Assembly (NCBI GenBank): GCA_045564015.1
Contig: JBJLIB010000012.1
Location: 53,227 to 117,226, forward strand
Direction: 5' to 3'
Length of the DNA stretch: 64,000 bases
Source of the DNA: Gammaproteobacteria bacterium
Lineage (GTDB): Bacteria > Pseudomonadota > Gammaproteobacteria > Magnimaribacterales > D2472
Shown: in pieces, positions 1 through 50,090 of the stretch
Numbering within the stretch: the first letter of the stretch is position 1
Layout: every line of letters begins with the position of its first letter
The notes under the pieces: generated by a model
What the model was told of the DNA's origin: nothing
What the model saw: only the letters and a program-made list of their open reading frames with translations
Database searches by the model: none
Made by a program: the position numbers and the translations under genes

Positions 1-273
1 GAAAATATTTTTGAACAATCAGATGACTTAAAAGGGATCACAAGAAATCTAAAGAATAATGAAGGTGAGAATTTAGAGATTATAGATGAAGCTATTTTGT
101 GGCTTGGAATAGTGGAGATACGCGCTAATGAGCTGGCTCATCCTGTAGTTATTGATGAATGTATACGCCTAGCAAAGAAATTTTCTAATCCAAATTCTTA
201 TAAATTTGTAAATGCAAAACTCGACGATTGGTTAAAAACAAATCAAGCTGAATGGCTTAGGAAGGGTAGTTAA
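1..273 (+). CDS. nusB: Transcription antitermination factor NusB, 5'-truncated by the window edge
   Basis: Not in the ORF track. Frame 1 reads ...LEIIDEAILWLGIVEIRANELAHPVVIDECIRLAKKFSNPNSYKFVNAKLD..., matching the NusB C-terminus (IDxAILR...VVINEAIELAKxF...KFVNGVLD). TAA at 271-273. Confidence 0.85.
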   Translation, partial: ENIFEQSDDLKGITRNLKNNEGENLEIIDEAILWLGIVEIRANELAHPVVIDECIRLAKKFSNPNSYKFVNAKLDDWLKTNQAEWLRKGS

Positions 274-2488: not shown

Positions 2489-2509
2489 GTCTCTCCAGAA
2501 TAGATAAAG

Positions 2510-3733
2510 CTAATCTCTATAAATTGTTTGATCTCTTGATGGTCCCACCGAAACTATGCCAACAGGACAATCCAAGGTTTCTTCAATAAATAGTATATAG
2601 TCCTGAGCAGCTTTAGGTAAATCATTAAAAGACCTAGCATTGGATGTATCCTGCTTCCAACCAGAAAATGTTTTATAAATAGGTTGCTGCTTTTGATCGT
2701 AGTCAATGCACACTTGAATTTCTTCAAAGCCATCTAGAACGTCTAATTTTGTGATGCATAGATTGGTAACAGAGTTGATAAAAACAATCGTTTCTAACGC
2801 TTTTAAATCCAACCATCCACATCTTCTTGGGCGTCCTGTTGTTGCACCAAATTCATGCCCAATCTTTGCCAGCTGGTCTGCGTTGGAATCAAATAACTCA
2901 GTAGCAAAAGGGCCCTCACCAACACGAGTAGTATATGCTTTGGTAATGCCCAAAATAGAATCAATATGTCGCGGGCCCACTCCCAAACCTGAAGATAAGC
3001 CACCTGCAGTAGTACTTGAAGAAGTGACATATGGATAGGTGCCATGATCAATGTCTAGCATAGAACCCTGCGCACCTTCAAAAAGGATGCTCTTGCCCTG
3101 TTTTACCCAAAGTTTTAAAAGATCCTGAGTTTTGCAATGATATTTATTATAAAGATCTATGTTGCCAGTCAGCTCTTCTAAAACATCCTCAAAAGCTATA
3201 GGTTGGGCATTATATAAATTCTGTAAAATTTGATTGTGATAATTAACCAATGTTGATAATTTTATCTTGAGCTCTTCAAGATTTTTTAAATCTCCAAAAC
3301 GCACTGCACGTCTAGCAATCTTGTCTTCATAGGCTGGGCCAATCCCTCTACCGGTTGTCCCAATACCTTCTTCTTTATCTCGAACCTGATCAATTGCTAT
3401 ATGAGTAGGCAAGATTAATGAGCAATCTTCACTGACATAAAAACGATCTTTAAAATTAATATCACTCTCTTGTAATTCCTTTATTTCTTTAGCTAAAGCT
3501 GGAAGAGATAAAACAAGACCATTACCCAAGACACAATGAACTGAAGGGTGAAGGATACCTGATGGGACTAAATGAAGGACTTTTTGTTCGCCATCAACTT
3601 TGAGTGTATGACCTGCGTTATGACCGCCTTGAAAACGACATACTGCCTCAGAACTTTCTGCCAAAGCATCTACAATTTTTCCTTTACCCTCATCACCCCA
3701 CTGCAAGCCCAAGATAAGGGTGTTATTGCTCAT
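2510..3733 (-). CDS. purA: Adenylosuccinate synthetase
   Basis: GLQWGDEGKGK, FQGGHNAGHT, GTTGRGIGPAYEDK, FEGAQG, GATTGRPRRCGW. Confidence 0.98.
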   Translation of the reverse strand: MSNNTLILGLQWGDEGKGKIVDALAESSEAVCRFQGGHNAGHTLKVDGEQKVLHLVPSGILHPSVHCVLGNGLVLSLPALAKEIKELQESDINFKDRFYVSEDCSLILPTHIAIDQVRDKEEGIGTTGRGIGPAYEDKIARRAVRFGDLKNLEELKIKLSTLVNYHNQILQNLYNAQPIAFEDVLEELTGNIDLYNKYHCKTQDLLKLWVKQGKSILFEGAQGSMLDIDHGTYPYVTSSSTTAGGLSSGLGVGPRHIDSILGITKAYTTRVGEGPFATELFDSNADQLAKIGHEFGATTGRPRRCGWLDLKALETIVFINSVTNLCITKLDVLDGFEEIQVCIDYDQKQQPIYKTFSGWKQDTSNARSFNDLPKAAQDYILFIEETLDCPVGIVSVGPSRDQTIYRD

Positions 3734-3739
3734 GGGATG

Positions 3740-4609
3740 TTAGTTATTGCCTTTTGACTTATTGAGGTATTTGAAGAAATCAGATTTAGGATCGATAACC
3801 AAAACATCTGACTTATTATTAAAAGTTGCATCATAAGCTTTCATGCTTCGAGTAAACTCATAAAATTCTGGATCTCTTGAGAATGATTCTGCATAGATTG
3901 CTGCTGCTGTAGCATCGCCCTCTCCTCTTATTTCTTCAGAGGTTTTGTAGGCTTCTGCAAGAATAATAACTCTTTCTTTATCCGCGGTTGAACGGATTTC
4001 ATTAGAAAGCTCATTTCCTTCAGCACGTAATTCTTCAGCTAATCTGTTTCTTTCAGAGCGCATTCTTTCATAAACAGAGTTACTTAGTTCAGGCGGCAAA
4101 TCGATTCTTTTAACTCTAAAATCAATAATCTCTATACCTAGATCAGATACAGAATTTCCTAAATTATCTCGCATGTCACTCATCAACTGATCTCTTTCTC
4201 CTGAAACTAATTCGGTCACTGTTCTTCGACCAAATTGATTTTTCAGCTCAAATGCAGTTCTTTGTCCAAGCAAATTATTTAAGTTAATAAAACTTCCACT
4301 GGTTGCATCATAAAAGGTTCGAACGTTTGTAATTCGATATTTTACAAACGAGTCAACAATAAGATATTTACTCTCAACTGTTAAGATTCTATTTGGCTCT
4401 TCATCTAGAGTCTGTAACCTTGAGTCATATTTTTTTACGTTTTGGATAATCGGTAATTTAAAATTTAAGCCAGTTGGAAGGTCGGATTTGATAGCTTCAC
4501 CAAACTGAAACACAATCCCATCTTCTTTTTCATCAATAACAAATATGCTGTTTAGTATTATTGCAAGAATAAGTCCCGCAAGAACTAAGAGATTCATTCC
4601 TTTAGTCAT
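3740..4609 (-). CDS. hflC: FtsH protease modulator HflC
   Basis: SPFH protein with N-terminal TM, VYERMRSER and DPEFYEFTRSM motifs; follows hflK. Confidence 0.95.
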   Translation of the reverse strand: MTKGMNLLVLAGLILAIILNSIFVIDEKEDGIVFQFGEAIKSDLPTGLNFKLPIIQNVKKYDSRLQTLDEEPNRILTVESKYLIVDSFVKYRITNVRTFYDATSGSFINLNNLLGQRTAFELKNQFGRRTVTELVSGERDQLMSDMRDNLGNSVSDLGIEIIDFRVKRIDLPPELSNSVYERMRSERNRLAEELRAEGNELSNEIRSTADKERVIILAEAYKTSEEIRGEGDATAAAIYAESFSRDPEFYEFTRSMKAYDATFNNKSDVLVIDPKSDFFKYLNKSKGNN

Positions 4610-5646
4610 TAGTCTTCCTCCTGTGATCTGTTTTGTTCAAGAATTTTATCTAATGGAAGGTACATCAAGTTATTGCCTCCCTCGACGTCCATCAATACTT
4701 TAGTTGAATTGCTGTATAGACCTTGCAAGGCATCTAAGTAAAGTCGATCCCGCGTCACTTTTGGTGCTTTTTCATACTCGGCTAATAGCTTATCAAAACG
4801 TACAGCTTCACCCTCTGCATTAGCTACAACCTCTTCTCTATATGCTTCAGCTGCTTGGATTCTAGCAAATGCTTGCCCTCGAGCTTCTGGGACAATAGAA
4901 AGGCCATATCTATCAGCTTCATTTTGCAATTTTTCTTTATCCTCTCTTGCTGCAACAACATCATCAAATGAAGCTTTGACAGCTGAAGGTGGATCAGTTT
5001 TTTCTATGTTGACCTGTTGCACTACAAGCCCAGTGGCATATAAATCGAGATAGCTTTGCAATCTTGAATCAACATCTTGAGCAATCATTTCACGGCCTGT
5101 TGTTAGTGTTTCCTCGAGGGTATTATCTCCAACAACATGACGTAATGAGCTTTCTGTCGCTTCTCTAAGGCTACTTTCTGGATCACGAACATTCAAAACA
5201 AAATCCTTTAAATTTTTTATTCGGTATTGCACAGAAATAGTTACATCAACTAGGTTTTCATCCTTGGTAAGCATGTTTGCTGTTTGTGAATAACGTCTAG
5301 TTAAGGCAACATTTTCTACATATCTTTCATCAACTCCAGCCAACATGAAGTTTAAGCCTTCTCCTGTCTCTTCATAATATTCACCAAACCTTAGAACAAC
5401 TGCTCTTTCTGGAGAGTCTAGCTGATAAATAGACATACTTGCGTAAATGACTAGTAATCCAAAAAAACCATACAAAAAAGCTTTTTTTGTTGGAAAATTA
5501 AATCCATTTCCGCCAGAAGATCCATTAGAGCCGGAACCTTGTTTTCCGAACATGACAGAAAACTTTTTTATTAAGTCATCAAACGAAACCTCGTCTTGAT
5601 CTTTTCTGCCCCAAGGGTCTTGATTATTTTGATTATCCCAATTCAC
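4609..5646 (-). CDS. hflK: FtsH protease modulator HflK (GTG start)
   Basis: MNW...DPWG N-terminus, MLTKDENLV, APKVTRDRLYLD, NNLMYLPLDK. Confidence 0.95.
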   Translation of the reverse strand: MNWDNQNNQDPWGRKDQDEVSFDDLIKKFSVMFGKQGSGSNGSSGGNGFNFPTKKAFLYGFFGLLVIYASMSIYQLDSPERAVVLRFGEYYEETGEGLNFMLAGVDERYVENVALTRRYSQTANMLTKDENLVDVTISVQYRIKNLKDFVLNVRDPESSLREATESSLRHVVGDNTLEETLTTGREMIAQDVDSRLQSYLDLYATGLVVQQVNIEKTDPPSAVKASFDDVVAAREDKEKLQNEADRYGLSIVPEARGQAFARIQAAEAYREEVVANAEGEAVRFDKLLAEYEKAPKVTRDRLYLDALQGLYSNSTKVLMDVEGGNNLMYLPLDKILEQNRSQEED

Positions 5647-5706
5647 GTAGATACCTATAATTGTAAAGTTTAATTATAAATTTAATTTGGGGGTAAATCC
5701 TAAGAA

Positions 5707-6660
5707 TTAAACGATTTCAAGCAAATTAAGTTGCTTTTTTAGTTGCTCAGCAGCTTCTTCACCTTGATGAAGATCAAAATAGATCAAATTTTCCCATCCT
5801 CTCATCCAAGTACATTGTCTTTTAGCAAATTGACGTGTAGCAAAAAGAGACTTTTCAAATAATTTAGACTGTTCCAACTTACCCTCAACCACTTGCAATC
5901 CTTGTCTATAATTTATTGCTTTCATTGCGGGATGTTCCGCAGAAATATCAAAAATATTTTGAATATTCACTATTTCCTCGAGCAAATTATCTCCAACCAA
6001 TGTCTCTTGTCTAGACTCTATTCTTGCATGAAGTTTTGCTCTTTCCACAGGAAAAATTCCAAACTCAATCAATGTGTGCTTTTCTTTTAATCCGCTAGTC
6101 TGTTCAGATGCAAGATTTTCACTCAAGCTCATGCCTGTTGAAGAGATAATCTCGATTGCTCTTATAATTCTTTGAGAGTCTTGAGAGTCAATAATTTTTG
6201 CTGCTTTAGGATCAAGCCTGGTTAGATCTGCATGCAGGGCATCCACTCCATCAGTAAGAATTTTTTTCTCTAACTCATCACGCAGAATCCGATCAGCCGA
6301 GGGAAGAGTGCTTATTCCTGTTTTCAAAAGATTAAAGTACATCATGCTGCCTCCAACCATTAATGGGATTTTATCTCTCGCATGTATGTCATCAATCAGC
6401 TTCATGGCTGAATCATAAAAATCTGCTACAGAAAATATAGAATCCAAAGAAACATGATTAACTAAATGATGAGGATGTTTTTTTAAGATTGCATTTGAAG
6501 GCTTAGCAGATCCAACATTGCATTCCTTATAAACCATGACTGAGTCTACGCTTATAATTTCTAGGGCTTCAAATTGATTTTGCCAGTTAATGGCCCAGTC
6601 GGTCTTCCCAGATGCAGTGGGACCTAGAAGAAATATTATGGGTTTCTTACTCAGTTTCAA
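5707..6660 (-). CDS. miaA: tRNA dimethylallyltransferase (TTG start)
   Basis: GPTASGKT, IISVDSVMVY, VGGSMMY, TRQFAKRQCTW. Confidence 0.96.
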   Translation of the reverse strand: MKLSKKPIIFLLGPTASGKTDWAINWQNQFEALEIISVDSVMVYKECNVGSAKPSNAILKKHPHHLVNHVSLDSIFSVADFYDSAMKLIDDIHARDKIPLMVGGSMMYFNLLKTGISTLPSADRILRDELEKKILTDGVDALHADLTRLDPKAAKIIDSQDSQRIIRAIEIISSTGMSLSENLASEQTSGLKEKHTLIEFGIFPVERAKLHARIESRQETLVGDNLLEEIVNIQNIFDISAEHPAMKAINYRQGLQVVEGKLEQSKLFEKSLFATRQFAKRQCTWMRGWENLIYFDLHQGEEAAEQLKKQLNLLEIV

Positions 6661-6665
6661 ATACT

Positions 6666-8236
<1,571 letters not shown>

Positions 8237-8297
8237 ATAAAAGGTATATCTAAATTAATGTAATAATACATTCTTTAATTTTTATGTACTCATAATA

Positions 8298-9152
8298 TTG
8301 ATCAGATTAATGATGACATTATGGCAAGGTCTTAGCCATCTACCAACTTCATGGCATCCGGCAATAGGAAGACTCTGTGGCAATCTCCTATTTATTTTAG
8401 CTAAGAGTAGAAAAAAAATTGCTCAAGCAAATATTGAAGCATGCTTTCCAAATCTCTCAAAAGCAGAGCGACAAGATCTCTTGCAGGATAATTTTTTGCA
8501 TCTGGGAAGATCATTCATTGAGACGGGCATCGCTTGGTTTTGGTCAGATAAGAAAATACAAAGCAAGGTTGATTATGATGTCATTGGGATAAATCATTTA
8601 TCTAACAATAACTCTAATAAAGGAAACTTAATCATTTTCAAGCACTCTCAACATTTAGAGTTGGATGCCCGACTTTTTGCCATGAATGCAGCGGTATATG
8701 GTGTAAGCAGAACACATAATTCCGCTTCAATGAATAAAATCCAAAATAAAGGTCGGCTTTCTAGCATTAAAGATACTGCAGATAAGAATAATCCACGAAA
8801 ATTTATGAAATGGCTGAAAGCAGGGAAGAATGTCATGTATGCAATAGATCAAGATTATGGATGGGATCATTCTGTGAAATTACAGTTTTTCAATCAAGAG
8901 GCTGCTACGATCACCACAACAAGAAAGATTATTGATGCTACTAATGCAAATTTATTATTTATAAATTCATATTACAAAAATAAAACATTAGTTCTTCAGA
9001 TAGAATTAATTGATCATGAAGGACTAAATTCAATAAAGTTGGCACAGAAAATTAATGACTTAATGGAAGAAAAGATTCTGCAACATCCAGCTGAATATCT
9101 TTGGATGCATAGAAGGTTTAAATCAACATTAGGAAAAAACTTTTATAAATAA
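8298..9152 (+). CDS. lpxL: Lipid A late acyltransferase (LpxL/LpxP family); start may be ATG 8310
   Basis: NIEACFP, ETGIAWFWS, HxxxxE motif (HSQHLE), DQDYG, YLWMHRRFKS; divergent from waaA. Confidence 0.88.
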   Translation: MIRLMMTLWQGLSHLPTSWHPAIGRLCGNLLFILAKSRKKIAQANIEACFPNLSKAERQDLLQDNFLHLGRSFIETGIAWFWSDKKIQSKVDYDVIGINHLSNNNSNKGNLIIFKHSQHLELDARLFAMNAAVYGVSRTHNSASMNKIQNKGRLSSIKDTADKNNPRKFMKWLKAGKNVMYAIDQDYGWDHSVKLQFFNQEAATITTTRKIIDATNANLLFINSYYKNKTLVLQIELIDHEGLNSIKLAQKINDLMEEKILQHPAEYLWMHRRFKSTLGKNFYK

Positions 9153-9153
9153 T

Positions 9154-9759
9154 ATGGACTTTGAACAATTAGATAATCTCAAAGGATTTATGCCTAGCCA
9201 TGAAGGCTTAGCATTAACAAAATGGGCAGAAAAATTTTCTCAATGTGGGCCTGCGCTTGAAATTGGTACCTTTGGTGCCAAGTCTGCTCTATACATCGCG
9301 GCTGGAAGTTCAATTCATGATGAGCTAGTTTATACAATAGATCATCATTCTGGTTCAGAAGAACACCAACTTGGTGAAGAGTATTTTGATCCAGAGATTT
9401 ATGATAAAAAATTAGGCCGAGTGAATACAGTGCCTTTGATGCAAGCTAATCTTCAGCAGTTTGATGAAAGTAAATGGGTGGTCCCCATTCTTGCAAATGC
9501 AAATTCTATTGCGCCTTCATGGAGGGCTGAATTAGGGCTTTTGTTTATTGATGGAAGTCATACTGAAATATCTGCACTGAATGATTATGATAATTGGAGC
9601 TCCAAGCTCCATTCTAATGGTGCATTGGTCATTCATGATATTTATGAAAAACCTGAAGACGGCGGACAAGCACCATATCTAATTTATCAAAAAGCTCTAA
9701 CAGAAGGTTTTCAACTTTACGAACGAGTTGATACGATTGTTTGCCTTACTAAAGCTTAA
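9154..9759 (+). CDS. Class I SAM methyltransferase (Methyltransf_24 type), MeT1-like 1-O-methyltransferase
   Basis: KGFM, LEIGTFGAKS, DHHSGSEEHQ, FIDGSHT, IHDIY...DGGQAPY motifs, as I recall them from actinobacterial MeT1 homologues. Confidence 0.8.
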   Translation: MDFEQLDNLKGFMPSHEGLALTKWAEKFSQCGPALEIGTFGAKSALYIAAGSSIHDELVYTIDHHSGSEEHQLGEEYFDPEIYDKKLGRVNTVPLMQANLQQFDESKWVVPILANANSIAPSWRAELGLLFIDGSHTEISALNDYDNWSSKLHSNGALVIHDIYEKPEDGGQAPYLIYQKALTEGFQLYERVDTIVCLTKA

Positions 9760-10792
9760 ATTGTTGCTTTATAAATAAATCTGCACCAGGGGTGAGTTGA
9801 TTGTTTGCATCGGCTGCAAGAATGCATGCCGCGGAAGTCCATGACGGCGTTTCTTCTGGCCAATAAATATTTTCATAAAATTGCCAGCCCATGTAAGGTA
9901 TGCCCTCTCTATCAACTATGGCAATAGCATTAAGAAGCAGTTCTGATGCAATCTTATCTTCACCAATTTTTTTGTATGCAATAGAGCATTCACTTGTCTC
10001 TGCAACAGTTACCCATGGTTCATCTGAAACACATTTGATTCCAAGGCCTTTAATCCAAAAAGAATCTTTAATGTTCTCTATTAGAGAGGTTATTCGTTGT
10101 TTAGAATTAATGCCGCCCAAGATTGGGTAATACCAGTCCATTGAAAACCTACTGCGATCTTTCTTTAGGTCAAAAATTTCTGCTGGATTTTCAAGCGCAA
10201 CTATCAATTTTGAATGCGAATCTCTCCATTCTGACTCAATGCTTTGATGCTCCAAAACTTGGCAAATTGCTATTGCACACTCTAGACTTTTCGCAATGGA
10301 GCTACAACCAGTTAATAAATAGTCTTCATCAATTTTTTCAGACTCATCAATATTCCATGCAATAGCTCCATTGCTATGTTGAAGAGAAAGAGAGAATAAA
10401 ATACCTTTTTTAACCGGCTCCCAAAAATTTTGAAGGAAATTAATATTGTTATTAAGCAAATAAAAGTGCCAAACTGCAACAGCAATATATGATGCATAAT
10501 TAGTCTGTTTATTTAGCTCTAATGGCTCTTCATCCTGATAGAGGTTATACCAACTGCCATCTTCATTTTGATTAGCTACCATCCACTGAAGACCATTAAG
10601 AGCTTGATCCCTAAAGCCTAAAGTAGTTAAGCCCATAACAGCTTCAAGATGATCCCAAGGATCATGTGAGCCATCCTGATTCGAGGGAATGGCACCAGAT
10701 AAAAGCTGAGAATCTTCTAAAAACTTGCCTAAATGGTTCAACCCATCCAAAGAACTAGGGTCAATATGAGATGTATTCGGAAATTCTTTCAT
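9749..10792 (-). CDS. (alpha/alpha)6-barrel protein usually annotated 'prenyltransferase/squalene oxidase repeat'; MmpH-like alpha-mannosidase candidate
   Basis: DPWDHLEA, QNEDGSW, YIAVAVWH, LLTGCSSI, RFSMDWYYPILGG, PWVTVAETSE, SWTSAACILAADA; context with a GT4 and two methyltransferases. Confidence 0.7.
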   Translation of the reverse strand: MKEFPNTSHIDPSSLDGLNHLGKFLEDSQLLSGAIPSNQDGSHDPWDHLEAVMGLTTLGFRDQALNGLQWMVANQNEDGSWYNLYQDEEPLELNKQTNYASYIAVAVWHFYLLNNNINFLQNFWEPVKKGILFSLSLQHSNGAIAWNIDESEKIDEDYLLTGCSSIAKSLECAIAICQVLEHQSIESEWRDSHSKLIVALENPAEIFDLKKDRSRFSMDWYYPILGGINSKQRITSLIENIKDSFWIKGLGIKCVSDEPWVTVAETSECSIAYKKIGEDKIASELLLNAIAIVDREGIPYMGWQFYENIYWPEETPSWTSAACILAADANNQLTPGADLFIKQQFKL

Positions 10793-11493
10793 TTTTTTTC
10801 AAAATAAAATGCAATGCTTTTTCCAAAAATAGGATTAAGAATTTTTTCAAGATTATTCAGCCATGCTGGACTTTGTAAAATTTGATATTCAAGAAATTTT
10901 TTATATATCTTTACTAGGTAATTTGAATCTTGAGTTTTCCAAAAAATACATCTTAGCCACCAATAGGCACTGTGCAGGCCATGAAATCTTTCAGCATGAT
11001 CATACTTAAATCCATGATCTAAGATTTCATTGATCAATTGACGCTTTTTAAAAATTCTTACATGGCCGCCAGGCATATTTTGATAGCCTGTTGAGAGAGA
11101 CCAGCAAATTTTTTCAGGCCAATATGAAGGAACGCTAGGTAGAAATTTACCTTCCGGTTTTAGAACTCTAAAAATTTCATCAATTGCTGCATGGTAATCA
11201 TCAAGATGCTCTAGAACCTCTGAACAAATTACAAGATCAAAAGTATTATCATCAAATGGAAGTCTATACACTGAGCCTTGCATAAACATAGTAGAGCCAG
11301 AATTCAGCTCCTTAAAAAACTCTAAACCTTCCTTACATTTATTTAATGAAGGGACATCCTGGTCCAATCCAACACAATGGACATCAGGAAATTCATGCAA
11401 AGATCCAAAAATATGACGTCCCTCTCCACACCCAACATCTAAAACTTTTGAGTGTGGCTCAAGCGCTATCTCATGCAAGCTAAAAGTTAACAT
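10789..11493 (-). CDS. Class I SAM methyltransferase, MeT3-like putative 3-O-methyltransferase
   Basis: VLDVGCGEGRH, FDLVICSEVLEH, WPEKICW...GGHVRI, LHSAYWWLRC, LNPIFGKS. Confidence 0.8.
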   Translation of the reverse strand: MLTFSLHEIALEPHSKVLDVGCGEGRHIFGSLHEFPDVHCVGLDQDVPSLNKCKEGLEFFKELNSGSTMFMQGSVYRLPFDDNTFDLVICSEVLEHLDDYHAAIDEIFRVLKPEGKFLPSVPSYWPEKICWSLSTGYQNMPGGHVRIFKKRQLINEILDHGFKYDHAERFHGLHSAYWWLRCIFWKTQDSNYLVKIYKKFLEYQILQSPAWLNNLEKILNPIFGKSIAFYFEKK

Positions 11494-12731
11494 TTGAATT
11501 CATCTATCGTTTTGTAAATTAAGTCTTCGTATAACTTTGCAATTTTTTGCCAATTAAAGTTCTCTATTATATGCATTCTGCCAGCATCTGCTCTCAATTG
11601 ATTGGTTTGAGGATTTGTAAAAATCTGTCTAATAGCTAATTCTATTGCATCTGCGCTCTCGGCTGGGATGAGTTCAGCAAAAGACTCAGTGATTTCTGGA
11701 ATAGATGCAACATTGGTTGCTATAAGAGGTATAGCACATGACATAGCTTCCCCAACAGGAAACCCAAAACCTTCATAGAGAGAGCTAACTATAGCAATAT
11801 TACTTTTTGCATATTCAACAGCTATCTCATCTCTAGTAAGGTTTGATCTATATAAAATGTTTTGATCAATTTTCAATTTTTTGATTAGTCTCTCTGTATG
11901 GCCGCCAGGTCTGGGCGCGCCAATAATCACTAATTTTAATTTTGGATAATCGGCTTTTAATCTAGCAACAGCATGAAGGGTAAAATCTAGACCTTTAAGT
12001 GGAACATCTGCGCTAGCTGTTGTAATAATTTGTGATGGAACTCTTTTAATATCCTGCATGGGAACAAAACTTGCATGATCTATGCCATTGGGTATGACTG
12101 AGATATTTTTTTCGAGCACACCGAAATCCTTTGCAATGTCTTTTTTTGAATTATGTGATGGTGTAGAAATCACCTTTAACTCTATAGATACCTTTTTTTG
12201 CATTTTTAAAAAAGAAAACCATCTCCATTTAGAAATTTTTTGGATAAAGCCCTTAGAAAATTGAATATCATAACGATAATCTTTTGTAATGGGGTGATGA
12301 ATAATTTCAATTAGGGGCATATTTTTTTGAACCTCGATCATTCCATGGCTAAGCGATTGATTATCGATCACGACATCATATGAAGATTCATTGAGAATGG
12401 TTTGAGCCCTGTTTCCAAATGTCTTTAGTTCTGGGAACCCTCCCAGCAGTGCTGAAATAAATTCATACCAATCATCTGCAGACTTACTCTTTTTTTCTAA
12501 AAAAATTTTTAGTCTTTCTTGAAAGTTAAAAGTACTAAATAAATTTAAACCTGGAGATTTAATTAACTTTATGCTGTTTTCAAGGTGGGGGTATGGCGGT
12601 CCTGAAATAACATCTACTTTATGACCTAGATTATTCAATGCCTTGGATAATTCAAAAACAAATATGCCTTGGCCACCTCCAAAAGGTGCACTTCGATAGC
12701 TGCAAATAGCAATGTTTAATTTTTGATCCAA
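11487..12731 (-). CDS. GT4 glycosyltransferase, ManT-like alpha-mannosyltransferase (TTG start)
   Basis: SYRS...GGQG, SGPPYP, GFPE, DNQSL, HHPITKD, ASADVPLKG, SLYEGFGFPVGEAM (GT-B EX7E motif). Confidence 0.85.
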   Translation of the reverse strand: MDQKLNIAICSYRSAPFGGGQGIFVFELSKALNNLGHKVDVISGPPYPHLENSIKLIKSPGLNLFSTFNFQERLKIFLEKKSKSADDWYEFISALLGGFPELKTFGNRAQTILNESSYDVVIDNQSLSHGMIEVQKNMPLIEIIHHPITKDYRYDIQFSKGFIQKISKWRWFSFLKMQKKVSIELKVISTPSHNSKKDIAKDFGVLEKNISVIPNGIDHASFVPMQDIKRVPSQIITTASADVPLKGLDFTLHAVARLKADYPKLKLVIIGAPRPGGHTERLIKKLKIDQNILYRSNLTRDEIAVEYAKSNIAIVSSLYEGFGFPVGEAMSCAIPLIATNVASIPEITESFAELIPAESADAIELAIRQIFTNPQTNQLRADAGRMHIIENFNWQKIAKLYEDLIYKTIDEFKC

Positions 12732-12743
12732 TTTTTAATAAGA

Positions 12744-13664
12744 CTAAATTGCAGTGAGCCAATGTGAATAGCTTGCATCACGCCCATAAACTATATCGGA
12801 ATAATTGCCTTGGAGTTGATCGGTGATTGGTCCAATGGAGCCACTGCCTATTTTTGATCCATCAACAGTTGTTATGGGTGTAATCTCAACTGCTGTACCT
12901 GAATAAAAAGCCTCATCTGCAGATAACAAATCTTCAAAGGTTAAATTCTTCTCCTCTACAGTTAATTTGAGATTTTTAGCAATAGTTATAACACTTTGCC
13001 TGGTAATTCCATTCAAACAATAATCTGTTGTGGGTGTCATTAACTTTGAATTTTTAACTATAAATAAGTTTTCACCACTACCCTCTGAGATAAAACCATT
13101 TTTATCCAGCAATATCGCTTCTTCCGCTCCTTTTGAAATTGCATCATTAACAGCCATAATCGAATTAACATATGTACCAATAATTTTATTGTTTGAATAT
13201 AAGGGATTGTCATATTGCTGAAATGGAGATTTAACAACTGAAATACCATTCCTCTTGGCCTCTGGATCCATATATGATGGCCATTCCCAACACGCAATTG
13301 CAACATTTACCGAAAGAGCGTCTTGAGATCTTAAGCCCATTGATTCACTACCCAAAAAGACAATCGGACGAATATAGCCCTCCTGAAGATTATTTTTAAT
13401 CATTGCTGCTTTCTGCGCTTGAGTTAAATCAGGAATCGAATAAGGAATTGAAATATTAATTTTGGATGCAGCATCAAATAGTCTTTTGGTATGATCATCT
13501 AATCTGAAGATGGCACCGCCATCTGCTGTTTCATAGGCTCGCACACCCTCAAAAACACCCATTCCATAATGCAGCGTATTAGACAAAAGATGGATATTTG
13601 TTTCATTGAATGGCTGAAAACTTCCATTAAGCCAGATGAATTTTGAGTCAGTATTAAGAAACAT
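12744..13664 (-). CDS. ilvE: Branched-chain amino acid aminotransferase
   Basis: LHYGMGVFEGVRAY, YIRP, EGSGENLF, GITRQS, DEAFYSGTAVEITP. Confidence 0.95.
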   Translation of the reverse strand: MFLNTDSKFIWLNGSFQPFNETNIHLLSNTLHYGMGVFEGVRAYETADGGAIFRLDDHTKRLFDAASKINISIPYSIPDLTQAQKAAMIKNNLQEGYIRPIVFLGSESMGLRSQDALSVNVAIACWEWPSYMDPEAKRNGISVVKSPFQQYDNPLYSNNKIIGTYVNSIMAVNDAISKGAEEAILLDKNGFISEGSGENLFIVKNSKLMTPTTDYCLNGITRQSVITIAKNLKLTVEEKNLTFEDLLSADEAFYSGTAVEITPITTVDGSKIGSGSIGPITDQLQGNYSDIVYGRDASYSHWLTAI

Positions 13665-13730
13665 GTTGTGTATGGTTTTAAGTCTCAGTTATTATGACAA
13701 AACAACCCCGATAATGAAATTAAAATTCCT

Positions 13731-15104
13731 ATGATTGACGAATCCATTTTCAGAGAATATGACATCAGGGGAATTGTGCCCTCTCAAGTAAACGAAGCTT
13801 CGATTAAATCCATTGCCCGTGCAATTGCAAAAAAATGCAATGAAGAAAATATCAATGAGCTGGCTCTTGGCAGAGATGGCAGACTGTCAGGAGAAGAGAT
13901 ATTAAAACTCCTTTCTTCACAACTTCAAACCAATGGAATCAATGTTGTGAATATTGGGATAGTTACAAGCCCTTTACTATATTATGCGGCTAAACAACTG
14001 CCTTCAAAATCTGGAATCATGATTACCGGGAGTCATAATCCAAAGAACTATAATGGATTTAAAATAGTAATTAACGATTCCCCTATATCAGGTCTTGAGA
14101 TCTTGGGTTTTCTATCTGATGAGCCAATCAATAAAAGAAATGCTGGCAAGGAAATCTATAAGAAAAATTTAATGGATGAGTACATTGAAGAAGTATCATC
14201 ACAAAGCACGAAGAAACCAAAAAAAATTAAAGTTGTTCTAGATTGTGGAAATGGTGCAGCTGGTGAAATTGCTCCCAAACTAATACGTTCATTAGGTTAT
14301 GAAGTGATTGAGCTATATTGCGAGATTGATGGGAACTTCCCCAATCATCACCCTGATCCTGGAAAAGAAGAGAACCTCCAAGATTTAATTCAGGCAGTAA
14401 AAGAAAATTCCGCTGATGTTGGAATAGCCTTTGATGGAGATGGAGATAGGCTAGGAGTTGTAACTGAAGAAGGAGACATTATCTTTCCAGATCAACTCAT
14501 GATGATCTTTGCTAAAGATATTTTAAAAAATTATCCTGGCAAAGAAATAATTTTTGACGTGAAGTGTACAAATTTACTTAGCAATATTATCAATCAGGCT
14601 GGGGGTATCCCATTAATGTCTGCAACAGGTCATTTTCATATTAAAAATACTCTTAAAAAAACCAATGCTCCACTCGCCGGCGAGATGAGTGGTCATATTT
14701 TTTTTAATGATAAGTGGCATGGTTTTGATGATGGTCATTATTCCGCTTTTAGATTATTAGAAATTATGAATAGTTTAGACATGCCGCTCTCTTCTATGCT
14801 CAATGAACTTCCCAAAGCCTGCTCTACCCCTGAATTAAATATTAATGTTGAAGAAGAAAAGAAATTTAAAATAGTAAAAGATTTTGTAAATAAAGCTCAA
14901 TTTAAGGGAGGCTCTAAAGTTACCATTGATGGGTTGAGAGTCGATTTTGATGATGGATGGGGCTTAATCAGGGCGTCCAATACAACTCCGAAACTTGTCC
15001 TTAGGTTTGAAGCTAAAACTTCTTCTAGATTAAAGGAAATAAAAAATATGTTTCTTAATCAATTAAAATTAATTGATGAAACAATTAAGGTTGATATAAG
15101 CTAA
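13731..15104 (+). CDS. algC: Phosphomannomutase/phosphoglucomutase
   Basis: IFREYDIRG, MITGSHNP, FDGDGDR, GEMSGH, RASNTTP. Confidence 0.95.
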   Translation: MIDESIFREYDIRGIVPSQVNEASIKSIARAIAKKCNEENINELALGRDGRLSGEEILKLLSSQLQTNGINVVNIGIVTSPLLYYAAKQLPSKSGIMITGSHNPKNYNGFKIVINDSPISGLEILGFLSDEPINKRNAGKEIYKKNLMDEYIEEVSSQSTKKPKKIKVVLDCGNGAAGEIAPKLIRSLGYEVIELYCEIDGNFPNHHPDPGKEENLQDLIQAVKENSADVGIAFDGDGDRLGVVTEEGDIIFPDQLMMIFAKDILKNYPGKEIIFDVKCTNLLSNIINQAGGIPLMSATGHFHIKNTLKKTNAPLAGEMSGHIFFNDKWHGFDDGHYSAFRLLEIMNSLDMPLSSMLNELPKACSTPELNINVEEEKKFKIVKDFVNKAQFKGGSKVTIDGLRVDFDDGWGLIRASNTTPKLVLRFEAKTSSRLKEIKNMFLNQLKLIDETIKVDIS

Positions 15105-15108
15105 AGCT

Positions 15109-15681
15109 ATGTCAAAAGACAGAAAACAAATTATTCTTCAGAGTTTAGCAAAGCTTTTAGAAGAAAGAGATGCAACAAAAGTTACAACAGCTGTTCTTGC
15201 AGCTGAAAGCGGGATAACTGAAGCTGCTCTCTATAGGCATTTTCCGAGTAAAAGGTCTATTTTCTTGGAGCTATTCACATTCTGCGATCAAACAATTTTT
15301 CAAAAAGTTGGAGAAATTAAAAAAGATAGCAAAATTGAGGCTGAAGAAAAAGTTAGATTAATATTCTTTTTTTATGCAATATTTCTAGAAAAAAATAAAG
15401 GTTTTGCGCGCATCTTATCTCGTGAGGCATTAGGACCAAGCGAGCAAAATGTAATAGACTCTGTGAATCAATTCTATGAAAGATTGGAGCTTTCGATCAA
15501 ACAATTACTAGCTTCAAAAAAAGATTCTTTGCAACTTACGGCAGGTCAAAGCGCCCATCTTATTACTTCAATAATGGAAGGAATTATCTCTAGGTTTATT
15601 AGAAATAAATTCAAGGAAATACCTAGCAGTTATATTGAGAATTATTGGTCACTCATTTCTAACAGTATTTTTAAAAGCTAA
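15109..15681 (+). CDS. slmA: Nucleoid occlusion factor SlmA (TetR family)
   Basis: RKQIILQSLAKLLE...VTTAVLA..GITEAALYRHFPSK; position downstream of algC is the usual slmA neighbourhood. Confidence 0.85.
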   Translation: MSKDRKQIILQSLAKLLEERDATKVTTAVLAAESGITEAALYRHFPSKRSIFLELFTFCDQTIFQKVGEIKKDSKIEAEEKVRLIFFFYAIFLEKNKGFARILSREALGPSEQNVIDSVNQFYERLELSIKQLLASKKDSLQLTAGQSAHLITSIMEGIISRFIRNKFKEIPSSYIENYWSLISNSIFKS

Positions 15682-18113
15682 ATTTCTTCATCTAAAAAAA
15701 GTTCAAAGTAAGAATTTTTGCTATTTTCATCAACTGGCTGGCCTGTTTCACGATCAACCCTCACATAAGAGAGACCTTTAGGAATTTTCCAATCTTCTTC
15801 AGGCAAGTTAGTAAGAGCTTTTTTCATAAAATCAACCCAAGTAGGCAAAGCGATGCTCGATCCAAATTCGTTATCTCCCAAAGAAGAGAAATCATCAGTT
15901 CCAACCCATACAGTGCTTACCAAATCATTGTGAAAACCTGAGAACCAAGTGCTGATCGCATCATTAGTTGTGCCAGTCTTTCCTGCAATGTCACTCCTTC
16001 TTAAGACTTGAGTTTTTCTTCCGTTGCTTCCTCTTGATAGAGCCTCACGTAAAATATCTTTTGTAATAAAAGTTACTCTAGGATCAATTGGTTCCAGTGA
16101 TTTCTTTGAGAGGGGGGGCAGTAAATAAAAAGGCTTTATTTCCTCTGTAAGCTGGGTTTGAAACCATGGAAAAGCATCAATATTTTTTTTCTTATTTTCT
16201 GTTTGAGGATTTTGAAAAATAGTCTTTCCATTTCTATCTTCTATTCGCTCTATAAAAAATAAATCTTTAGGATCCTCAGAGTTAGTCATAATGCTATACG
16301 CCCGCACCATCTCTGCTGGAGAAAAACTTGATGATCCAAGTGCCAATGATAAATCTGGAGCCAGCCTAGATGAAGAGAAGCCAAACCTTGATAAATAATT
16401 TTGCGTCAATGGAATTCCCATTTCTCGTAATAACTTTATAGAAACTAAGTTCACTGACTGAACTAAAGCTTCTCTGAGTCTAATAGGTCCATAAAATTTA
16501 CCTGTATAATTTTCAGGTCTCCAGCTACTCTCTAAATTAGAGTCTTCAAATATTATGGGGGCATCATTTATTTTATCTGATGCTTTATAGCCATTCGCAA
16601 AAGCAGAGGCATAAATAAATGGCTTAAAGCTCGAGCCCGCTTGAGGATATGATTGTTTTACTCTATCAAAGTTACTTTTTGAGAAATTCAATCCACCAAT
16701 ATAAGTCTTAATTGCACCATTAGATGGATCTGTAGAAATAAATGCAACTTCAGCATCAGGGACTTGGTCAAGATAGTAATTTCCATTTTGCTCAGATAGA
16801 TAGATCAAATCTCCCTTACGAAGAATGTCATAAAAATTTTGAGGTCTGGGACCAAGTTTATTAATATCAATTTTTCTTCTAGCCCATTTGTATGATTCAT
16901 CCCAAAATAAACTTTCTAATTGAAAGGAATTATTAAGATAGATAATCCTTTCAGGCTTTACATCAATGACTATTCCACCCGAATGTTGATCTAAATTCAC
17001 AAACTCTTCAAAAAAATCTCTAATAACTGATACATTGAGCTGCTTCATGCTCAGCTCATCTAGGGTATTGGATTCTTCATACAGAATGTCTAAATTACCA
17101 GTTTGTAATTCTTCAAATATTGAATCAGAAATTTTTGATAGGAGGTTTATAGGCTCTCTCCAGCCATGACGTTTATCATAGTCATATAAGTTTTTTGCTA
17201 CGCTCTCAAGGGCAGCCTGCTGGAGTGAGGAATCTATTGTGGTGATAACTGATAATCCATCCTTGTAGACTGATAAGCCATATCTTTCAATCATTGCTTG
17301 CCTAGCGATTTCAGCAATATATCGTCCATCTAATGAAAAGTTTGAATCTAATTGAGTTAGGTTTATTGGCTCAGATTTTGCAAGTAAAAACTGCGCCCTA
17401 CCAATATATCCAAGCTTATACATCCTTCCTAAAATCCAGTTACGCCTGATAATAGATCTGTCAGGAGAGCGAATAGGATTAATTCTTGAGGGAAGTTGGG
17501 CTGATGATGCAATTAATGCAGATTCGGCAAGAGTTAACTCATTGATAGATTTAGAAAAATATTTATTTGCTGCAGCCTCCACCCCATATGCTCGATTGCC
17601 TAAAAAGATAGTATTTAAATATAAGGAAAAAATTTCTTCTTTTGTTGCAGAACTTTCTAATTCAAAAGCTAGATAGATTTCTTTAATTTTTCGAATAATT
17701 TTTTGCTCTCTAGATAATAAATACCCCCTGACAACCTGCATTGTAATTGTGCCGCCACCGCTCACAATTTCTCCAGATTGAATCATCTGGTAAAAAGCTC
17801 TAATAAACGATGGGATCCTTACGCCACCATGCTCAAAAAATTGATCGTCTTCTGCTGCTAAAAATGCATTTTTAAGATTCTGTGGAATTTGCTCATACTC
17901 TATCGTTCTTCTTTTTTGATCTCCAAACTCCCCGATTAATATCCCATCAGACGTTAAGACTTTTAAAGGTATTTGCAATACATCTTCATCAACTAAGTTA
18001 ATTTCAGGAAGACTGGGTTTAATAAGAAAATATCCCATGCCAATGGTCAAGATTGCTGCAAGGGTGCCAATAAGTGCAGCAACTAATGCCCAATTTATTA
18101 ATCTAACAAACAT
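15678..18113 (-). CDS. mrcA: Penicillin-binding protein 1A
   Basis: EDDQFFEHGG, GGGTITMQ, RKIKE (transglycosylase); SSFK, SVN, KTG (transpeptidase). Confidence 0.95.
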   Translation of the reverse strand: MFVRLINWALVAALIGTLAAILTIGMGYFLIKPSLPEINLVDEDVLQIPLKVLTSDGILIGEFGDQKRRTIEYEQIPQNLKNAFLAAEDDQFFEHGGVRIPSFIRAFYQMIQSGEIVSGGGTITMQVVRGYLLSREQKIIRKIKEIYLAFELESSATKEEIFSLYLNTIFLGNRAYGVEAAANKYFSKSINELTLAESALIASSAQLPSRINPIRSPDRSIIRRNWILGRMYKLGYIGRAQFLLAKSEPINLTQLDSNFSLDGRYIAEIARQAMIERYGLSVYKDGLSVITTIDSSLQQAALESVAKNLYDYDKRHGWREPINLLSKISDSIFEELQTGNLDILYEESNTLDELSMKQLNVSVIRDFFEEFVNLDQHSGGIVIDVKPERIIYLNNSFQLESLFWDESYKWARRKIDINKLGPRPQNFYDILRKGDLIYLSEQNGNYYLDQVPDAEVAFISTDPSNGAIKTYIGGLNFSKSNFDRVKQSYPQAGSSFKPFIYASAFANGYKASDKINDAPIIFEDSNLESSWRPENYTGKFYGPIRLREALVQSVNLVSIKLLREMGIPLTQNYLSRFGFSSSRLAPDLSLALGSSSFSPAEMVRAYSIMTNSEDPKDLFFIERIEDRNGKTIFQNPQTENKKKNIDAFPWFQTQLTEEIKPFYLLPPLSKKSLEPIDPRVTFITKDILREALSRGSNGRKTQVLRRSDIAGKTGTTNDAISTWFSGFHNDLVSTVWVGTDDFSSLGDNEFGSSIALPTWVDFMKKALTNLPEEDWKIPKGLSYVRVDRETGQPVDENSKNSYFELFLDEEI

Positions 18114-18221
18114 ACAAATTAAATGATTATGTTTTTACCTTAACTCAAAAATATTTTGATACATGAATTAGAATTATTTTACCCCTATAAATGATAGAAT
18201 CAGCAACTTAAAAAACTAAGT

Positions 18222-18731
18222 ATGAATATTTTTATTGTTGGCCCCATGGGCTCGGGAAAAACCACTGTAGGAAAGATTGTGGCTGGCGAGCTATTTTTAG
18301 ATTTTCATGATACTGATGCAAAGATTGAGGATAGTACAGGCGTCACAATAGATTGGATTTTTGATATTGAGGGTGAAGCAGGTTTTAGAAAACGAGAAAC
18401 TGCCACATTAAAGGAAATGGTTGCCTTGAATTCTATAGTTCTTGCTACGGGTGGCGGCATTGTAATTGAGGAAGAAAATAGAGAACTATTAGCATCAAGA
18501 GGCACTGTTTTCTATCTACATACTCCATTAAACACTCAAGTTGAAAGAACAGCTAAAGATAAAGATAGGCCTTTATTAAAAGATAAAGATCCAGAAAAAG
18601 TCCTCGCGGATCTCCAGAAATCTAGACAATCTCTTTATGAAGAGGTTGCGGATCACATAATCAATACTGAGAATAAGAGTGGCTCTGATGTTGCAAATGA
18701 AATTGTTAAGCTAGTTAAAAATTATGGCTAA
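18222..18731 (+). CDS. aroK: Shikimate kinase
   Basis: GPMGSGKTT, EGEAGFRKRE, ATGGG, RPLL. Confidence 0.97.
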   Translation: MNIFIVGPMGSGKTTVGKIVAGELFLDFHDTDAKIEDSTGVTIDWIFDIEGEAGFRKRETATLKEMVALNSIVLATGGGIVIEEENRELLASRGTVFYLHTPLNTQVERTAKDKDRPLLKDKDPEKVLADLQKSRQSLYEEVADHIINTENKSGSDVANEIVKLVKNYG

Positions 18732-19797
18732 AGAGCTATTTGCAGGTCAAAGAAAAAATAAATACAGGATTGTGATTAGCAAGAATGCTATTTCTAAAAA
18801 AAATCTTGCCCCTCTTCTTAAAAACCATAATAAAACTCTTCTCATTTCAGATGATGGAGTGCCTTCAAAGATAGTGAGAGAAGTTGCTGCCGTTTGCAAA
18901 CCATCAACTAAAGTTTTTAAGATCATCCTCAAGCATGGAGAACAGGCTAAATCTGTTCAAAACTTTCAAAAAATACTTAATTTTTTAGCAGATAATAATT
19001 TTGATAGAACAGATCTAATAGTGGCTGTTGGTGGCGGAGTGGTTGGAGATATCTCGGGTTTTGTTGCCAGCTCTTACCTAAGAGGCATTCAATTTATACA
19101 AATACCGACAACTCTTCTTGCTCAGGTGGATTCTTCTGTGGGAGGCAAGACTGCTATTAATATAGTAGCGGGCAAGAATCTTGTTGGAGCATTTTATAAC
19201 CCAAAAGGTGTCATTATCGATACAACTGTACTTAACTCACTTCCGAACAGAGAGTTCAAGGCTGGATTAGCAGAGGTCATTAAATATGCCTTCATTCAAA
19301 ATAAATCTCTTTTTTCATTACTTAAAAAATATACTAAAAAAATATTATTAAAGGATCAAAAAATTATTGAAGAGATAATTTTTTTATCTCTTCAAACCAA
19401 AGCAATGATTGTGAACAAGGATGAGAAGGAAAATGGTATTCGTGCAATACTAAATTTTGGACATACGTTTGGGCATGCCATTGAAGCACATGGTAAATAT
19501 AAGAAAATCCTTCATGGAGAGGCTGTTGCCAAAGGAATGAAGGTGGCTTCTAAAATTTCCTATTTAGAAAATCTGATTTCTGAAAAAGAACACAAGGAAG
19601 TTATTGCTTTATTGCAAAATTTTGAATTTGATTTATCTCTCGAGCAATATAAATACAGAGAACTAAAACCATATATATTTAGAGATAAAAAAATTAAAGC
19701 AGGGAAATTAAATCTTGTCCTGCTGAATAAATTATCAAATGCAGTTGTGACAAATTCATTTGATGCCAAGAGTCTACAGAAAGGCCTTCAAGATTAA
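18724..19797 (+). CDS. aroB: 3-dehydroquinate synthase
   Basis: GGGVVGD, PTTLLAQVDSSVGGKT, LNFGHTFGHAIE, HGEAV. Confidence 0.97.
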   Translation: MAKELFAGQRKNKYRIVISKNAISKKNLAPLLKNHNKTLLISDDGVPSKIVREVAAVCKPSTKVFKIILKHGEQAKSVQNFQKILNFLADNNFDRTDLIVAVGGGVVGDISGFVASSYLRGIQFIQIPTTLLAQVDSSVGGKTAINIVAGKNLVGAFYNPKGVIIDTTVLNSLPNREFKAGLAEVIKYAFIQNKSLFSLLKKYTKKILLKDQKIIEEIIFLSLQTKAMIVNKDEKENGIRAILNFGHTFGHAIEAHGKYKKILHGEAVAKGMKVASKISYLENLISEKEHKEVIALLQNFEFDLSLEQYKYRELKPYIFRDKKIKAGKLNLVLLNKLSNAVVTNSFDAKSLQKGLQD

Positions 19798-49418: not shown

Positions 49419-50090
49419 TTAATTTTCTTCTTTTAGTGATGCCCTTGCAAGCTCTAACCTCTCAATAGTTCCAATATCTATCCACAATGAGGTGTCTTGA
49501 TGAGCGGTAATTTTTTGTGCTTTGATTAGAGGCCTCATTATCGTATTCCAAATATCAAATGGAAAATCTAAGTTTAAATACTCTTTCAAAATTACAGGAT
49601 TGATTAATGAGATACCTGACCAAGTCAAATCATTTGCCTTCTCATTAATAATTACTGAGCTGCCTAGCAAAGAGAAATCTCCATCTTGATTGTGATTTGG
49701 ATTTGAAATACCGATTAAATGTGCTGCATCAGTTGAACTGGGCAGTTTGGATAGATCAATTTCAGAAAAAATATCTGCATTACATAATATAAATGGATCA
49801 TCTCCTAGGTGATCAATAGCATTAACCAAGGCACCACCAGTCCCATAAGGGTATGGCTCCTCAATAAAACAGATATTTTGATGGTGTGAATGATTTTTTA
49901 AGGATTCTTTTATTTGTTCACCCAAGTATGAAATATTTATAACAAAATCATTGATGCCGAGATTTAATAATCTATTAATCTGATCTTCGATTAAGGAAGA
50001 TGATCCAACTTTTAGTAGGGGTTTAGGGATTTTTAAGGTTAAAGGCTGAAGTCTTTTTCCTTCTCCAGCTGCCAGAATCATTGCTTTCAT
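49419..50090 (-). CDS. murU: MurNAc-1-phosphate uridylyltransferase
   Basis: KAMILAAGEGKRLQPLT..PKPL, NPNHNQDGDF, WIDIGT; overlaps the amgK stop. Confidence 0.85.
   Translation of the reverse strand: MKAMILAAGEGKRLQPLTLKIPKPLLKVGSSSLIEDQINRLLNLGINDFVINISYLGEQIKESLKNHSHHQNICFIEEPYPYGTGGALVNAIDHLGDDPFILCNADIFSEIDLSKLPSSTDAAHLIGISNPNHNQDGDFSLLGSSVIINEKANDLTWSGISLINPVILKEYLNLDFPFDIWNTIMRPLIKAQKITAHQDTSLWIDIGTIERLELARASLKEEN

Follow-up and report, generated by a model that had tools for sequence, protein, structure and literature searches.

Orthologues of the mycobacterial methylmannose polysaccharide genes in small-genome marine Gammaproteobacteria

Do bacteria outside the Actinobacteria carry the genes for methylmannose polysaccharide (MMP), an intracellular polymer with affinity for fatty-acyl chains, studied so far as a mycobacterial oddity tied to fatty acid synthase I (FAS-I) and cell-envelope lipids? 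The question is raised by a 64,000-nucleotide stretch of DNA (the window) from contig JBJLIB010000012.1 of the gammaproteobacterial assembly GCA_045564015.1 (order Magnimaribacterales, family D2472), in which an earlier note, made from the sequence alone, had described a complete MMP gene set. According to Maranha et al. (2023; PMC9883506), MMP has been isolated from mycobacteria only, with an acetylated form from Streptomyces griseus, and the genome survey reported there was limited to mycobacteria and related actinobacteria. The homologue lists of that paper (150 MmpH and 149 ManT sequences; Table S1, Figures S7 and S10) may include non-actinobacterial sequences. Among the papers listed by full-text searches of the literature, none was found to describe either the gene cluster or its polymer in Proteobacteria. 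Judged by sequence comparison, the four window genes are true, conserved orthologues of the MMP cluster of mycobacteria, here in a new group of hosts.

The cluster comprises four intact open reading frames (ORFs) at window positions 9154–12731, read from a list of ORFs with translations and agreeing in coordinates with the earlier note. Three minus-strand genes, for a family 4 glycosyltransferase (GT4), an S-adenosylmethionine (SAM)-dependent methyltransferase and an (alpha/alpha)6-barrel protein, overlap by 4 and 7 nt and converge on a plus-strand gene for a second methyltransferase; the 3′ ends of this MeT1-like gene and the MmpH-like gene overlap by 11 nt. Family models gave generic answers: Pfam returned Methyltransf_24 for the MeT1-like protein, nothing for the 347-amino-acid (aa) protein, and Methyltransf_11 and Glycos_transf_1/Glyco_transf_4 for the other two, and no NCBIfam model reached its cut-off for any of the four, leaving only generic names. 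The specific identity therefore rests on direct comparison with characterized enzymes. Searched against all PDB sequences, the 201-aa MeT1-like protein matched 6g7d, 6g80 and 6h40 only (6g7d over residues 5–185), the sole match of the 347-aa protein was 7qsj, and the GT4 protein matched 7qsg with the next chain at 5.4e-15 (E values of the best matches are in the table). 7QSJ is the methylmannose polysaccharide hydrolase MmpH and 7QSG is ManT (PMC9883506). The 234-aa methyltransferase had generic matches only, because MeT3 has no solved structure.

We compared the window with a reference cluster drawn from the family containing Dietzia, in which 145 of 301 genomes have MmpH-like genes; one of the 145, flagged as unpublished, entered this count only. 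The reference genome comes from a close relative of M. hassiacum. Bit scores are 640.9 for its MmpH against 7qsj and 385.6 for its MeT1 against 6g7d, making 6g7d the MeT1 of the cluster in this close relative. The reference locus consists of MeT1 on the plus strand followed by MmpH, pMeT3 and ManT on the minus strand, with overlapping convergent ends, which is the order and orientation found in the window. All four window proteins are reciprocal best hits of their counterparts, with identities of 40% (MeT1), 37% (MmpH), 37% (pMeT3) and 34% (ManT). In the reference mycobacterial genome, the window ManT found the cluster gene at 3.7e-73 versus 3.5e-13 for the next GT4, and the window pMeT3 found the cluster pMeT3 over its full length at 3e-47, with the next methyltransferase at 1.5e-10. 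In the reverse search, the best matches of all four reference proteins in the window's own genome were the window genes; this assembly is 60% complete, so a better match could sit in the unassembled part.

Functional residues were compared in alignments of homologues from loci L003–L097 and L133–L135 with query coverage of at least 80% (98 rows for MmpH, 93 for ManT, 70 for MeT1 and 93 for MeT3; L002, 99% identical to the window, was omitted). MmpH residues D47, D50 and E262 and ManT residues K240, E313 and E321 are required for activity (PMC9883506). Among the catalytic and subsite residues of MmpH, D47, W49, D50, T163, M215, Y219, E262 and E265 are kept in the window as D44, W46, D47, T161, M218, Y222, E265 and E268, and F102 is replaced by Y99. 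ManT G15, H142, K240, E313 and E321 correspond to window G19, H145, K246, E320 and E328; G314 and F315 are also kept, and L317 is replaced by F. MmpH E262 is invariant in its 98 rows, as are ManT K240, E313 and E321 in their 93. By alignment, the window proteins thus retain all residues of MmpH and ManT whose importance has been proven by mutagenesis. In the MeT1-like protein, 30 of the 32 columns that are at least 95% conserved among 70 homologues are kept, including those of three motifs, DHHSGSEEHQ (residues 63–72), FIDGSH (131–136) and HD...DGGQAP (161–174). The pMeT3-like protein keeps all 38 columns conserved at this level among 93 homologues.

By a crude test, no membrane segment or signal-like N terminus was found in the four cluster proteins, whose maximal 19-residue Kyte-Doolittle hydropathy was 0.47–1.42, versus 2.40 for the N-terminal anchor of WaaA. 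By this measure the four enzymes are predicted to be soluble and cytoplasmic. As a separate observation, two near-invariant residues in a glycine-rich loop of the MeT1-like protein (residues 41–42) are changed, from C (68 of 70 rows) to G and from G (69 of 70) to A.

These comparisons bear out much of what the earlier note had proposed. The overlapping minus-strand unit converging on a second methyltransferase is present in the ORF list, and the DHHxGSEEHQ, FIDGxH and HD...DGGQAP motifs that it named lie within the conserved columns of the 201-aa protein. Its claim that gene content and motifs match the MMP cluster agrees with the reciprocal best hits, the PDB matches and the functional residues. 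Of the checks it had suggested, reciprocal comparison paired all four proteins with the mycobacterial enzymes, and the acidic catalytic and subsite residues of MmpH (D47, D50, E262 and E265) are all kept in the alignment.

Table. The four cluster genes and the adjoining mutase gene, in window coordinates
Feature	Coordinates	Strand	Details
MeT1-like SAM-dependent methyltransferase	9154..9759	+	201 aa; PDB 6g7d, E = 9.4e-45
MmpH-like (alpha/alpha)6-barrel endo-hydrolase	9749..10792	-	347 aa; PDB 7qsj, E = 1e-58
pMeT3-like class I SAM methyltransferase, predicted 3-O-methyltransferase	10789..11493	-	234 aa; reciprocal best hit
ManT-like GT4 glycosyltransferase, predicted alpha-1,4-mannosyltransferase	11487..12731	-	414 aa, TTG start; PDB 7qsg, E = 3.5e-73
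Phosphomannomutase/phosphoglucomutase	13731..15104	+	four PGM_PMM Pfam domains; conserved neighbour

The phosphomannomutase (PMM) gene adjoins the cluster in loci of the window's own lineage and at the level of the order. Its product scores 481.5 bits with the NCBIfam model PgmG, under the 600-bit cut-off; it could supply hexose-1-phosphate and is a candidate member of the pathway. Further genes flanking the cluster (window 257–19797) are purA, hflKC-like genes, miaA, a P-II gene, ilvE, a SlmA-like gene, and the genes for PBP1A, aroK and aroB. A scan for promoters and terminators was uninformative, with 31 promoter-like sites versus 34.9 expected and 4 terminator-like sites versus 6.0 expected.

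A scan of one genome per species found at least 572 relatives of the MmpH-like protein, and the best 80 of these were used for locus comparisons. The 80 loci come from uncultured marine Gammaproteobacteria, Smithella and other Syntrophales, Alphaproteobacteria (OCS116, PS1, Parvibaculales and IMCC14465), Cellvibrionales-like metagenome-assembled genomes (MAGs), one Bacteriovoracaceae MAG and Actinomycetota. ManT, MeT3 and MmpH genes are collinear on one strand in 74 of them, and contig ends cut five of the other six. Because the same collinear three-gene block recurs in so many related loci, the cluster is far beyond chance. MeT1 is present in 57 of the 80 loci, in 35 of them convergent at a distance of no more than 400 nt. 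Within the window's order (four families, with genomes of 0.9–1.8 Mb), the MmpH gene was found in 38 of 40 genomes and in 17 of 17 high-quality genomes, and the block is conserved at order level together with its PMM, ilvE, lpxL and waaA neighbours. By contrast, when the class was sampled evenly, MmpH was found in just 10 of 401 genomes. Among 1.84 billion representative proteins, MmpH-like matches numbered 119 at 1e-30 and 543 at 1e-10. From these surveys, the cluster is widespread in Proteobacteria and Syntrophales and is not peculiar to this genome.

Some loci depart from the common arrangement. Two genomes from a single genus of the window's order have an MmpH match (G034:C1:246168-247175 and G037:C2:183871-184875) with one in-frame TAG, which could reflect a pseudogene, an assembly error or recoding. 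In a Desulfobacteraceae MAG (L072), neither ManT nor MeT3 lies within 12.5 kb of the MmpH-like gene. MmpH-like frames or proteins of 519–762 aa, found in several actinobacterial genomes and as the proteins P0015, P0031 and P0107, carry the MmpH part at the C terminus and may be fused forms. In Syntrophales the block, as on a Smithellaceae chromosome (L012:3360-12050), runs from a PHP-domain protein through ManT, MeT3 and MmpH to a hexapeptide acyltransferase and a B12-binding radical SAM enzyme, and MeT1 sits 2.5–5 kb further on. These neighbours suggest a polymer variant that is acylated and perhaps C-methylated.

We built a tree from the three concatenated proteins (FastTree, 91 rows, no outgroup; long-branch and composition warnings apply). 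The Actinomycetota formed one clade (support 100), with a Syntrophales group as its sister (99), and the sequences of the window's order lay on one side of a branch (99). The window fell outside the clade of actinobacterial sequences, and on this basis we rejected a recent transfer from Actinobacteria. The tree follows taxonomy, which argues against recent transfer and not for a particular root.

Purifying selection on the cluster is as strong as on neighbouring housekeeping genes. Compared with the relative at L004, the ratio of nonsynonymous to synonymous substitution rates (dN/dS) was 0.066 for MmpH, 0.081 for MeT3 and 0.095 for ManT, and 0.049 and 0.112 for the neighbours IlvE and PMM. Retention of the genes in a minimal genome, which the earlier note had taken as a sign of importance, is borne out both by the dN/dS of the cluster genes (0.07–0.10) and by the presence of MmpH in 38 of 40 genomes of the order. 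The window stretch is near-complete in 14 marine, seawater or aquatic metagenome runs from eight studies. Contigs from four marine metatranscriptome runs (four studies) cover parts of all four genes; strand, level and operon structure cannot be read from contigs, and DNA may be present in RNA libraries, so they are a weak hint of expression.

What would the four enzymes make? We consider it likely, by analogy with the mycobacterial system, that they are a functional orthologue of the MMP pathway and produce a small cytoplasmic polymethylated glycan. ManT uses GDP-mannose as its donor (PMC9883506), and the ManT-like GT4 would lengthen short alpha-1,4-linked oligomannosides with mannose taken from a nucleotide-mannose. 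The pMeT3-like methyltransferase would methylate O-3 of the added units. The MeT1-like methyltransferase would methylate the reducing-end 1-OH, leaving the glycan as a free, capped, soluble oligomer, and the MmpH-like hydrolase would cut mature chains to give primers for new ones. The product would most likely shelter long acyl chains, as acyl-CoA, in a cell living mainly on lipids, or help at low temperature. All of the enzymatic steps are inferred by analogy with the characterized enzymes, as are the sugar, its linkage and what the polymer does in the cell. The description of the host as lipid-catabolizing is compatible with its gene content: its own genome (0.98 Mb, 60% complete) has 11 acyl-CoA dehydrogenase domains in 11 places, two of them at C12:45458-47024, just upstream of the window, which fits a heavy reliance on fatty-acid and acyl-CoA catabolism.

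Several points weigh against this reading. Identity to the characterized-type enzymes is only 34–40%, and the catalytic residues of MeT1 were judged by column conservation alone. In the window's lineage, the cluster is flanked by lpxL/waaA on one side and the PMM gene on the other. Proteobacteria use type II fatty acid synthesis and have no FAS-I, so the reasoning developed for mycobacteria cannot simply be transferred to them. The literature searched holds no chemical evidence for an MMP producer outside the actinobacteria. ManT L291 and D293 are taken as guanine contacts, the latter as proposed by Maranha et al. (PMC9883506); L291 is kept in the window, and D293 is replaced by R300 in a column that is D in only 21 of 93 homologues.

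A further group of such points concerns the supply of GDP-mannose. The guanylyltransferase part of TIGR01479, the model for bifunctional ManC, was found in five of six genomes of one family of the order and in none of those of the other three (0 of 24, which include the window's own genome, 0 of 5 and 0 of 5), where the model matches only a short C-terminal cupin piece. In the window's family, PF00483 found only GalU, GlmU, a MurU-like protein and, in one genome, an RmlA-like protein, with one of the searched genomes 96% complete, and no protein exceeded the cut-off of the mycobacterial-type model NF052502. Thus the gene set that had been called complete has its four cluster genes, but this family has no canonical GDP-mannose pyrophosphorylase by TIGR01479, PF00483 or NF052502. 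Beyond the order, ManC is present in all five cluster-bearing genomes examined, as a full-length gene in four and a split one in the fifth. Within the order, six genomes without a full-length ManC have a GDP-mannose 4,6-dehydratase that exceeds its model's cut-off, implying that GDP-mannose is made there by another route.

A fusion protein of about 258–259 aa is a candidate substitute for the mannose-activating step, as its domains suggest. It joins an N-terminal PF01467 domain to a C-terminal PF01050 phosphomannose isomerase cupin, and in a genome of the same genus its gene (L158:8866-9645, minus strand) adjoins gmd. The PF01467 domain is nearest heptose-1-phosphate adenylyltransferase, under the cut-off of that model. 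The copy in the window's own genome lies on contig C9 (L140:1483-2256, minus strand); it aligns end to end over both domains, although no ATG, GTG or TTG start codon opens its frame. Its neighbours, a TonB receptor, DoxX and a fatty acid desaturase, are uninformative. The fusion belongs to a large unnamed family: of 8000 scored candidates, 7992 match at 1e-10, giving at least that many clusters at 90% identity.

A MurU-like gene (window 49419–50090) was also considered as a ManC substitute and set aside, its best PDB matches being MurU over the full length (6e-41 and 4e-39). The gene scores 189.5 bits against a 250-bit cut-off and adjoins an APH-family kinase with a weak likeness to AmgK (95 bits against a 550-bit cut-off); the pair lies at window 49419–51040 on the minus strand. 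A peptidoglycan-recycling bypass of this kind, with a MurU-like protein and an APH kinase, would be unexpected in a genome this small.

The missing pyrophosphorylase invites the explanation that the same enzymology acts on a soluble alpha-1,4 glycan, but with another sugar or a donor other than GDP-mannose, such as an ADP- or UDP-linked hexose. A canonical enzyme for GDP-mannose was missing from three of the order's four families, GalU and a phosphoglucomutase/PMM are present, and the N-terminal domain of the candidate fusion is nearest an adenylyltransferase. The D293 column also differs between the family with ManC (E, E, Q and E) and the three without (K/R; F; K/N/K). However, this pattern tracks kinship and fails outside the order, where A, P or N occupies the column although the genomes carry ManC; as a sign of altered nucleotide preference it is no more than a hint. 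A change of sugar or donor would require four enzymes to shift specificity together, yet the MmpH subsites and the conserved MeT1 and MeT3 columns are kept. The GDP-mannose 4,6-dehydratase in six genomes without full-length ManC argues in the same direction, as do the mannose-6-phosphate isomerase domain of the fusion and its position beside gmd in the same-genus genome. We therefore think a changed sugar or donor unlikely, although it is the most credible of the alternatives.

The neighbourhood suggests a different possibility, that the genes decorate lipopolysaccharide (LPS) or another envelope glycolipid with methylated mannan. The Kdo transferase gene waaA and an lpxL-like lipid A acyltransferase gene are immediate neighbours of the cluster and are kept there across the order. 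The lpxL-like gene ends 2 nt before the MeT1-like start, and MeT1 may be co-transcribed with it. The O-polysaccharide of Oligotropha carboxidovorans is an alpha-1,2 homopolymer of 3-O-methylmannose (cited in PMC9883506). Against this, LpxL/WaaA genes are beside the cluster in only 8 of the 80 loci, all of the window's own lineage, and Actinomycetota, although they make no LPS, carry the block as well. Membrane segments are absent from all four proteins, and within about 9 kb on either side (window 257–19797) there are no ABC exporter, flippase, polymerase or ligase domains (Wzx/Wzy, WaaL). A reducing-end cap and a cytoplasmic endo-hydrolase would also be ill-suited to a glycan attached through its reducing end, and we regard envelope decoration as improbable. 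More improbable still is that the cluster scavenges or remodels imported methylated mannosides, or persists as a conserved relic with no polymer product. MmpH is indeed a hydrolase, and the source of the first primer is not evident from the sequence, but a glycosyltransferase and two methyltransferases are anabolic and no transporter is adjacent in the same interval. Purifying selection on all tested genes and their presence across the order argue against a relic.

If the four genes do constitute an MMP pathway, a polymer supposed to be actinobacterial is probably much more widespread, as the distribution of the genes suggests. Its role would then be more general, either in the handling of hydrophobic acyl chains or in adaptation to cold, and these bacteria would offer much simpler genetic backgrounds for testing that role. 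The biology of abundant ocean bacteria would gain a new intracellular glycan. The ManC gap also points to the large unnamed fusion family, with its at least 7992 clusters, which may be a second route to activated mannose. A broader proposal, which we put forward tentatively and consider rather doubtful as a whole, is that polymethylated mannose oligomers are a core cytoplasmic component of this entire small-genome marine gammaproteobacterial order, of marine Alphaproteobacteria and of Syntrophales, where, in the absence of FAS-I, they would serve lipid catabolism as chaperones of acyl chains and, in most of the order, be fed by the uncharacterized fusion enzyme. In that case these bacteria would be a marine source of methylated sugars as well.

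Among known systems, the closest is the mycobacterial meT1-mmpH-pmeT3-manT cluster of M. hassiacum and M. smegmatis (Maranha et al., 2023; PMC9883506), which has the same four genes in the same order with a convergent MeT1. The two are alike in their reciprocal best hits, in the conservation of residues tested by mutagenesis and in having soluble proteins. The window cluster differs in its 34–40% identity, its Gram-negative host and its lipid A/Kdo and PMM flanks. It differs also in that its family has no canonical GDP-mannose pyrophosphorylase, in the replaced guanine-contact Asp of ManT and in the position of the gammaproteobacterial genes outside the actinobacterial clade, and it is a system known from genes alone. 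The 6-O-methylglucose lipopolysaccharide (MGLP) is the second polymethylated alpha-1,4 glycan of the cytoplasm for which acyl-CoA sequestration has been proposed (PMC9883506). The mycobacterial MGLP pathway uses different, non-orthologous genes, and the window proteins match the MMP enzymes specifically.

Methylated mannose is also made by Gram-negative bacteria, in the 3-O-methylmannose O-polysaccharides exemplified by Oligotropha carboxidovorans (PMC9883506). Those are exported, lipid-linked surface polymers with alpha-1,2 or alpha-1,3 linkages, whereas the window cluster has no export genes and its proteins no membrane segments. In E. coli O8 and O9a, terminal methylation is carried out by WbdD. 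Unlike Gram-negative O-polysaccharide systems, the window cluster has a predicted reducing-end capping enzyme and a predicted recycling hydrolase.

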